64,000 nucleotides of DNA from Escherichia coli (GTDB lineage Bacteria; Pseudomonadota; Gammaproteobacteria; Enterobacterales; Enterobacteriaceae), in assembly GCF_003334785.1 (NCBI RefSeq), contig NZ_QOWV01000011.1. One strand, written 5' to 3'. How positions within the stretch are numbered: position 1 is the first letter of the stretch; the number at the start of each line of letters is the position of its first letter. The position numbers and the translations under genes were made by a program. The notes under the pieces were generated by a model, which saw nothing but the letters and a program-made list of their open reading frames with translations, did no database searches and was not told where the DNA came from. Below are positions 35,094-35,300 of this stretch, one piece after another.

Positions 35094-35300
35094 ATGAAAA
35101 ATCAAGCAACCCGCCTCATACGCTTACCAGAAGTTCTCGAACGAACTGGCTACGGAAAAGCCTGGATCTATCGTCTGATCAACGATGGCAAGTTTCCTGC
35201 TCCTGTCAAAATTGGAAGTCGTGCAATAGCTTTCGTTGAAAGTGAGATTGATAGCTGGATTCAGTCTGTTATCGAAACAAGTCGAAATAATGTTGCTTAA
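35094..35300 (+). CDS. AlpA-family phage transcriptional regulator / excisionase-like HTH protein
   Basis: 68-aa ORF MKNQATRLIRLPEVLERTGYGKAWIYRLINDGKFPAPVKIGSRAIAFVESEIDSWIQ matches the AlpA/Xis-type MerR-like HTH pattern. Confidence 0.8.
   Translation: MKNQATRLIRLPEVLERTGYGKAWIYRLINDGKFPAPVKIGSRAIAFVESEIDSWIQSVIETSRNNVA

Follow-up and report, generated by a model that had tools for sequence, protein, structure and literature searches.

The stretch of DNA analysed here (the window, 64,000 nucleotides from an Escherichia coli contig) carries a small alpA-like gene whose end lies 17.4 kb from the only integrase gene of the surrounding island, and the question raised by this locus is how a gene of this family comes to be placed at the opposite end of an island from its putative partner and what it may do there. 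The arrangement of CP4-57, with alpA beside intA, had served as the reference for the first-pass annotation, and in K-12 alpA is indeed found 1.2 kb downstream of intA. The same annotation had described the gene as distal, about 17 kb from the integrase and separated from it by mobilisation and candidate defence modules, and this description was borne out: alpA lies 1.4 kb from attR, and a relaxase gene as well as the genes of a NACHT-like NTPase and a RelA/SpoT-like protein are located between alpA and int. The favoured answer, with a probability of about 0.65, is that the gene encodes the AlpA protein of a mobilisable island inserted in ssrA, that its split from the integrase reflects the manner in which the modules of such islands are joined, and that the protein may serve, judging by homology, as a trans-acting excision factor or regulator.

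The island at ssrA and its gene content

The window covers the ssrA / CP4-57 locus of an E. coli chromosome and runs in the opposite orientation to K-12. To the left of the island are the gab operon, ygaQ, ypjCB and ypjA, as well as ileY at 27889-27964, a tRNA gene whose anticodon is CAT; smpB to recN lie on its right. The identity of the window to K-12 is 99.96-100% up to position 33691 and again from 54113, nothing between these positions matches CP4-57 DNA, and from about 25 to 54 kb of the window the GC content drops to 31-46%. The island thus delimited by comparison with K-12 spans 33692-54112 (20,421 bp) and is inserted in ssrA, the tmRNA gene at 54114-54476 on the minus strand (ARAGORN; Rfam RF00023, 295.8 bits), apart from which the Rfam search returned nothing within the island. 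The att sites are the same as those used by CP4-57, and the content is wholly different. The left break relative to K-12 comes directly after ...GATTGGTGGGCTGGCG, which is psaA in the K-12 annotation and constitutes attR; its core, TTGGTGG-GCTGGCG at 33678-33691, is a displaced pseudo-ssrA fragment identical to the annotated K-12 psaA. The attL core, TTGGTGGAGCTGGCG, is the 3' end of ssrA and is contained, together with the attL-side arm, in 53948-54126. Direct-repeat and mismatch searches for a copy of the ssrA 3' end did not find attR because the attL and attR cores differ by a 1-nt indel.

The attR-side arm (33692-33966, 275 bp) is common to the ssrA-type islands only, being present in the island of strain AH02 and missing from the islands of the tRNA-Leu type described below. 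In an alignment of seven ssrA-type arms from at least five genera it shows the conserved blocks TGGTCCTAAAAAGGAACCATAAATC, TGTATCAAAA and AGTTCAAC...CTGAACT, which are candidate sites for arm-type binding of Int, for IHF or for a recombination directionality factor (RDF). In the attL arm, GG(G)ACCC is present as a set of three conserved repeats upstream of int, and conserved repeats of the GGNCC type, like those of CP4-57, occur in both arms, where the Arm-DNA-bind_3 domain of the integrase could plausibly use them as arm-type sites. Two 8-mers shared by the attL and attR arms (ACTGAACT and TATCAAAA) are about as frequent as expected by chance and are kept as candidates only.

Counted from attR, the order of the island genes is DUF6387, alpA, orf99, two small ORFs, a helix-turn-helix (HTH) protein, a set of 36-nt repeats, lipoprotein-like ORFs and the relaxase, followed, after an accessory ORF, by an ankyrin-repeat protein, the cargo, the ParB-like and serine recombinase genes, and the integrase. 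The 187-aa HTH protein (36686-37249, minus strand) gave only sub-threshold Pfam matches, namely HTH_36, Phage_rep_O and Rep3_N, is conserved at 66-95% in nine loci and is possibly a replication initiator; the repeat search found three iteron-like 36-nt direct repeats with a 49-nt spacing at 37691-37824. For the small ORFs at 38856-39914, lipoprotein- or membrane-protein-like, there was no NCBIfam match. The relaxase (40100-41329, minus strand) has sub-threshold NCBIfam matches to MobB, TraI_MobP and MbpB and is annotated in RefSeq as 'relaxase/mobilization nuclease domain', and PF03432 is reported on the relaxase genes found at the same position in the loci fetched via DUF6387 homologues; beside it lies the small accessory ORF of the mobilisation module (41326-41733, minus strand). 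The variable cargo of the window (45028-48047, plus strand) consists of the 704-aa NACHT-like NTPase (RefSeq 'NACHT domain-containing protein') and the 301-aa RelA/SpoT-like protein, a candidate defence pair. The integrase-side module includes, at 48307-52441 on the minus strand, a boundary element of 81 bp and, within 49100-52441, the gene of a large serine recombinase and two ParB-like genes, followed by the P4-type tyrosine integrase (52718-53947, minus strand; Pfam Arm-DNA-bind_3, Phage_int_M and Phage_integrase), which is the sole integrase of the island and is 49% identical to IntA of CP4-57 by BLASTP. The start codon of int is 165 nt from the attL core. Neither conjugative type IV secretion genes nor a TraD-like ORF were found among the island ORFs, and by its gene content (int, one att pair and a relaxase, without a type IV secretion system) the island is an integrative mobilisable element.

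The alpA gene and its surroundings

The gene (35094-35300, plus strand) begins with ATG, is preceded by a Shine-Dalgarno-like AAGGGA motif and encodes a winged-helix protein of 68 aa that belongs to the AlpA family. Its homology, claimed earlier from the sequence alone, agrees with the profile search, in which the product matched Phage_AlpA (PF05930) over model positions 2-51 of 51 with E=1.6e-19, in addition to HTH_17 (2.5e-7) and two PHROGs families named 'excisionase and transcriptional regulator' (7.6e-11 and 3.1e-10); no NCBIfam model matched at or above its own cut-off. An identity as MAD1 of the MADS system (NCBIfam, PADLOC) was dismissed, the score of 19.9 bits being far below the cut-off of 80. 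Among solved structures, the closest are 8C3T ('AlpA family phage regulatory protein') and 1Z4H, the TorI excisionase of prophage KplE1, with which a winged-helix fold family is shared; the similarity to the prophage-encoded TorI is weak (E=0.065), and in the phmmer alignment TGYGKAWIY..FP..SRA of the window protein faces TGFGKTFIY..LP..GRA, so placed that Y20, Y26, P35 and R43 line up at the same spacing with the F, Y, P and R of TorI, the F being replaced by Y20. These four residues have been named as ones that matter to TorI's RDF activity (PMC8844411). The dN/dS ratio of alpA is 0.10-0.28 against seven relatives in which both layouts described below are represented, and this indicates purifying selection and a functional gene across the family.

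The constant 5' neighbour of alpA is a DUF6387 gene (33967-34812, plus strand; PF19924, E=1.5e-80), which lies between attR and alpA and is frameshifted in the window by a 1-nt deletion near 34591 in comparison with the intact 281-aa gene of FORC064, intact alleles including WP_001067213.1; the confidently predicted structure of the DUF6387 protein (pLDDT 81) had no informative structural neighbour. The region directly upstream of alpA (34890-35093), about 200 nt, is better conserved than the adjoining coding DNA. At 35024-35038 it contains a terminator-like hairpin, and at 35058-35063 a -10-like box, TATAGT, spotted by eye and present again in divergent relatives. No good -35 element was seen upstream of alpA, and a sigma-70 scan gave no plus-strand promoter there. 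The box without a good -35 element and the conserved 200 nt suggest that the alpA promoter is weak or activator-dependent, possibly with autoregulation. On the other side, 20 nt 3' of alpA and in the same direction, lies orf99 (35321-35620), which is probably co-transcribed with alpA; its homologues come after alpA in AH02, ET210, FDN-11 and the surveyed loci L011 and L026-L029, and neither orf99 nor the other small backbone ORFs had a family match in NCBIfam or PHROGs.

Two layouts of one island family

At least 80% of the island is present in 56 of 5,426 complete E. coli genomes, about 500 E. coli genomes share only 48307-54109 (int, the serine recombinase and the two ParB-like genes), and 1,071 show a match of some kind to the DUF6387-alpA segment when searched in distant mode. 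Over the island, strains AST198 and E2 are 99.9-100% identical to the window. The distal layout recurs at ssrA in AH02, HCM-24C-3 and B4103-1, in which the cargo slot, flanked by the integrase-side genes on one side and the relaxase backbone on the other, is occupied by a Gabija-like nuclease and helicase, by SIR2 with a three-component system, and by Kiwa with a type I restriction-modification (RM) system, respectively; in FDN-11 an island within an array at tRNA-Arg carries an Hxs system. In the ssrA islands of this layout int adjoins ssrA, and alpA-DUF6387 occupies the other end, beside attR and ypjA; the pair is also found beside ypjA in O157:H7 strains. The DUF6387-alpA segments of HCM-24C-3 and O157 are only about 63-66% identical to the window at the DNA level, and the layout, being kept over this distance, must be old. 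The other layout, on the same backbone, is that of E. coli ET210 and A21, where tRNA-Leu, int, DUF6387, alpA and, further on, the relaxase, the ankyrin gene and the cargo all run in one direction, and it occurs likewise at L011 and at Salmonella and Klebsiella loci.

For a view beyond E. coli, loci were fetched from species-representative genomes by DUF6387 alignment (A1), with contigs taken via several DUF6387 homologues, and each locus was scanned for alpA, integrases, the relaxase, the HTH protein and tRNA/tmRNA genes. The resulting 39 DUF6387 loci are a biased sample in which both layouts are clearly common. The gene alpA is co-directional and downstream of DUF6387 in 36 of them, the other three having no alpA match within the fetched sequence. 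An integrase in the same direction lies 115-139 nt upstream of DUF6387 (2.4 kb in one case) in 14 loci, all of which, where enough sequence is available, have a tRNA-Leu about 1.55 kb upstream of DUF6387; the remaining 25 lack a co-directional integrase directly upstream and form the distal group. Ten of these 25, from E. coli, Citrobacter, Kluyvera, Photorhabdus, Pluralibacter and a short contig assembled from a metagenome (L017), carry the ssrA-type junction GCTGGCG|TCCCTGTAA, and in the distal loci with enough sequence int and tmRNA follow 15.8-18.1 kb downstream. The contigs obtained via the homologues P0213, P0193, P0222, P0231 and P0218 represent ssrA-type, tRNA-Leu-type or other DUF6387-alpA contexts, and an Asn-tRNA repeat upstream of DUF6387 was seen in none of the loci checked. 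The comparison of architectures across strains and loci, proposed with the first-pass annotation, therefore returned two common layouts, and the premise that alpA normally adjoins its integrase describes only one of them (14 adjacent against 25 distal loci).

The distal position has, moreover, been described in other elements. In the EARL islands the integrase and the RDF lie at opposite att sites (PMC6035254), and the gene table of ICEKp258.2 lists, at the end opposite to the integrase, an AlpA regulator of 72 aa and a DUF6387 family protein of 287 aa (PMC10763509), DUF6387 being outermost and gene order and strand agreeing with those in the window island. With EARL and ROD21 the island shares a small AlpA-family protein (60-72 aa) at the att site opposite a P4-like integrase, and the presence of a relaxase; the likeness to SEN1998 of ROD21, CAR33580.1, and to the ICEKp258.2 proteins KPNJ2_RS09325 and RS09320 was judged from the papers, by Pfam families, gene order and position. 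However, the EARL islands target Asn-tRNA, whereas attL and attR of the window island are repeats of the ssrA 3' end. To the gene content of EARL belong TraD, type IV pilin genes, a relaxase of the MobA/MobL kind and, in many cases, H-NS homologues; none of these was found among the ORFs of the window island, as regards pilin genes by NCBIfam, and its relaxase has sub-threshold matches of the MobB/MobP/MbpB type. The island is thus not a member of EARL, although it shares with that family the split excision module and the DUF6387-AlpA terminus. E. coli D8, considered as an EARL island, proved to hold a separate element beside mutS that has only the HTH/relaxase backbone in common and no alpA. 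In VPI-2 vefB is placed at the far end, as is alpA in the window, and vefA, which is essential for excision, lies mid-island and far from intV2 (PMC3014918); VPI-2 differs as a 57-kb pathogenicity island of Vibrio cholerae with a tRNA-Ser target and no reported DUF6387 partner. In EcCIMP1 a second AlpA at the opposite end behaves as an excisionase, and the int-adjacent AlpA serves as the PICI's master regulator (PMC11773190). The PICI AlpA belongs to the same Pfam family and is a small activator required for excision and the life cycle, but PICIs, as phage satellites, encode packaging and primase-replication functions and have alpA immediately downstream of int, whereas the window island has a relaxase, no phage genes and a distal alpA, and no PHROG match was found for the small backbone ORFs scanned. 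As for CP4-57, the target and the attR remnant (psaA) are the same and the AlpA proteins are 38% identical, besides the integrase homology given above, but CP4-57 shows no DNA similarity to the island, lacks the relaxase backbone and DUF6387, and has alpA on the same strand as the adjacent intA. The window island is therefore not of the CP4-57 type: target and integrase homology are shared with it, the adjacency of int and alpA is not. Since the split layout is conserved and already described, the distal alpA is ordinary.

Origin of the split and the role of AlpA

The manner in which the two layouts are related can be seen in L011 from Pseudocitrobacter faecalis, the backbone of which is about 85-87% identical in DNA to 33985-43512 of the window. 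This segment of about 9.5 kb, from DUF6387-alpA-orf99 through the HTH/iteron module and the lipoprotein ORFs to the relaxase and the ankyrin gene, is common to the tRNA-Leu-type islands (blastn of the window against L011, L019 and L024). Compared with the window or FORC064 copy, the proteins of L011 are 91-94% (AlpA), 93% (DUF6387), 93% (HTH protein) and 96% (MobC-like ORF) identical, and yet the integrase, of the tRNA-Leu type and directly upstream of DUF6387-alpA, is only 34% identical to that of the window by BLASTP. The homology between window and L011 begins at the start codon of DUF6387, and the attR arm in front of it is confined to the ssrA type, from which it follows that the exchangeable unit is, by this comparison, the integration module (attP arms and int), joined to the backbone in either orientation. 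No motif common to the ssrA-type and the tRNA-Leu-type att regions was found.

Of the two origins offered in the first-pass annotation, a composite island or module shuffling, the second thus gains support from the exchange seen in L011, and the first does not hold, at least as a tandem composite. The att-like cores within 33000-54200 are attR and attL only, and the island (33692-54112) contains no internal att-like core, no second junction of the attR arm and no remnant of a second integrase at a meaningful E-value, which led to the rejection of a tandem-composite origin. A more elaborate version, in which an int-SerRec-ParB element at ssrA and an integrase-less remnant carrying alpA were fused by accretion and deletion, leaving alpA an orphan, could appeal to the roughly 500 E. 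coli genomes with the int-SerRec-ParBx2 segment only, to the frameshift of DUF6387 in the window copy, and to the tandem arrays that do exist at ssrA elsewhere, such as FORC064 (a P4-like satellite and an IS3-truncated integrase), AH02 (the integrase of another island just outside attR) and B4103-1. However, the attR arm by DUF6387 is conserved with the ssrA junction in ten loci of several genera, arm and junction also occur in islands without SerRec-ParB genes (AH02, HCM-24C-3), and in BL21/C43(DE3), where only int-SerRec-ParBx2 is left beside IS1, the remainder of the island was lost by IS1-associated deletion. With the single att pair, the purifying selection on alpA, and the orientation of alpA relative to ssrA, which a simple tandem fusion would have made the opposite, such a fusion is very improbable.

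In the reading preferred here, DUF6387 and alpA form a two-gene cassette heading the conserved backbone of about 9.5 kb. In the ssrA type, int and this cassette lie on opposite sides of attP and are transcribed away from it, and in the tRNA-Leu type attP, int, DUF6387 and alpA succeed one another in one direction. With int and alpA diverging from attP, integration brings int to attL and alpA to attR, and all the cargo comes to lie between them. In the excised circle the alpA start would come to lie about 1.4 kb and the int start 165 nt from the core, about 1.6 kb apart in all, and the 17-kb gap holds in the integrated state only. The protein, made from its own weak and probably activator-dependent promoter, would act in trans, promoting or tuning excision through binding to the attachment regions and/or an increase in int expression. 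It is likely that AlpA is an excision factor or regulator for the ssrA integrase, as suggested by its homology with SEN1998 of ROD21, VefA, Hef, TorI and the AlpA of CP4-57.

A different role for the same protein would be that of a regulator of the backbone, which autoregulates, switches on orf99, the HTH/iteron module and the mobilisation genes, perhaps upon a cue from a conjugative helper element, and leaves excision to Int alone; this is rather unlikely, and the two roles are not mutually exclusive. The association of 91-94% identical AlpA proteins with two unrelated integration modules that share no att motif speaks for it, since one AlpA with unrelated integrases and att arms is unexpected for a classical arm-binding RDF that co-evolves with its integrase. 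The conserved 200 nt upstream of alpA, suggestive of a regulatory target, and the fact that alpA is the first of two co-directional genes, orf99 being the second, point the same way, as does the PICI AlpA, a positive autoregulator and master activator (PMC11773190). SEN1998, which binds attL and, with higher affinity, attR, lowers ROD21 excision just slightly when deleted, and its authors have suggested further roles for this non-essential protein (PMC8844411). On the other hand, the cassette lies close to an att site in all layouts, in keeping with a function in excision, and the characterised island relatives SEN1998, VefA and Hef act on excision. The frameshift in the adjoining DUF6387 copy of the window is a further observation that counts against the preferred reading.

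It is also possible, though offered tentatively, that DUF6387-alpA is a portable control cassette tied to no particular integrase, as the seeming indifference of AlpA to the integrase it accompanies would have it. AlpA would then chiefly govern the mobilisable backbone as its master regulator, controlling its own gene and those for replication and mobilisation, rather than serve as a classical arm-binding excisionase, possibly acting together with the uncharacterised DUF6387 protein, and this might bear on the retention of SEN1998-type genes in ROD21-like islands, where they are near-dispensable for excision.

For the annotation of P4-integrase islands of Enterobacterales, the excision regulator should accordingly be looked for at either att end, the DUF6387-AlpA pair marks an island terminus, and it would be misleading to take a distal alpA for a hint of a composite island. 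The survey outlines an ssrA/tRNA-Leu family of mobilisable islands, for which no specific description was found in the literature searched, with a fixed backbone and a variable segment of defence-type cargo, such as the NACHT and RelA/SpoT-like pair and the Gabija-like, Kiwa, type I RM, SIR2 and Hxs genes. The tmRNA locus is known as a defence hotspot of E. coli, occupied by integrative mobilisable elements among others (PMC10121019), and the cargo of the ssrA islands fits this description.

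The region downstream of alpA

A gene for a 187-aa HTH protein (36686-37249, minus strand), whose sole matches, to Phage_rep_O, Rep3_N and HTH_36, were sub-threshold, is adjoined by three direct repeats of 36 nt with a spacing of 49 nt (37691-37824), and the repeats and the protein could form an iteron-plus-initiator replication module of the excised island. In many relatives this module is replaced by two tyrosine recombinases and a large 'DNA-binding protein', as in the comparison loci L004 (6232-10602), L009 (21693-26137), L037 (10682-14844) and L033 (14339-18487), with the trio placed directly 3' of alpA or of orf99, the ORF that follows it. 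Islands with three integrases, termed 'GInt', are mentioned in PMC10121019, and the trio resembles them. In the variants with the trio, alpA does adjoin recombinase genes.

The alpA upstream region and DUF6387

The approximately 200 nt located 5' of alpA (34890-35093) are nearly invariant among the window, the E. coli strain AH02 and the Pseudocitrobacter island with int-adjacent alpA, while the flanking coding DNA has about 87% identity in the same comparison. The RNA fold z-score of the segment 34813-35100 is -2.96, and 34890-35093 may have a regulatory role or form a structured leader. The DUF6387 gene, which forms a two-gene cassette with alpA, is frameshifted in the window by a 1-nt deletion at ~34591 relative to FORC064 (231 aa vs 281 aa), and this could be either a real pseudogene or a homopolymer sequencing error.

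Cargo and the integrase-side segment

The variable cargo segment of the island carries, at 45028-48047 on the plus strand, two translationally coupled genes, for a NACHT-like NTPase of 704 aa and a RelA/SpoT-like protein of 301 aa, the latter having a sub-threshold match to the small alarmone synthetase YjbM (2.7e-7); PADLOC matched no system for the pair, which is a candidate uncharacterised defence pair. The large serine recombinase and two ParB-like genes move together as a unit, found beside int in the window (49100-52441, minus strand) and, in a different context, in locus L035 (549-3837), upstream of DUF6387, in the same direction and with an H-NS homologue; the unit is possibly a cassette in its own right, either mobile or serving maintenance. 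The segment comprising int and this unit, common to ~500 E. coli genomes, has as its exact left edge an 81-bp element (48307-48387) that contains a long inverted repeat (AAGCAAGGGGAACCC...GGGTTAGCCCTTGCTT) and also occurs, with 77-93% identity, at the cargo boundaries of ET210, HCM-24C-3 and Pantoea coffeiphila; this element may function in recombination or as a boundary.

The ssrA locus

The ypjA autotransporter gene (30871-33518) carries, at window position ~33210, an internal deletion of ~2.06 kb relative to K-12, whose locus positions 25955-28013 are absent. In FORC064 (L001, 33748-43345), ssrA is separated from the alpA-bearing island's integrase, which is truncated by IS3, by a P4-like satellite with its own integrase and genes for primase, Icd-like, Ogr/Delta and Psu proteins; this exemplifies tandem accretion at ssrA.
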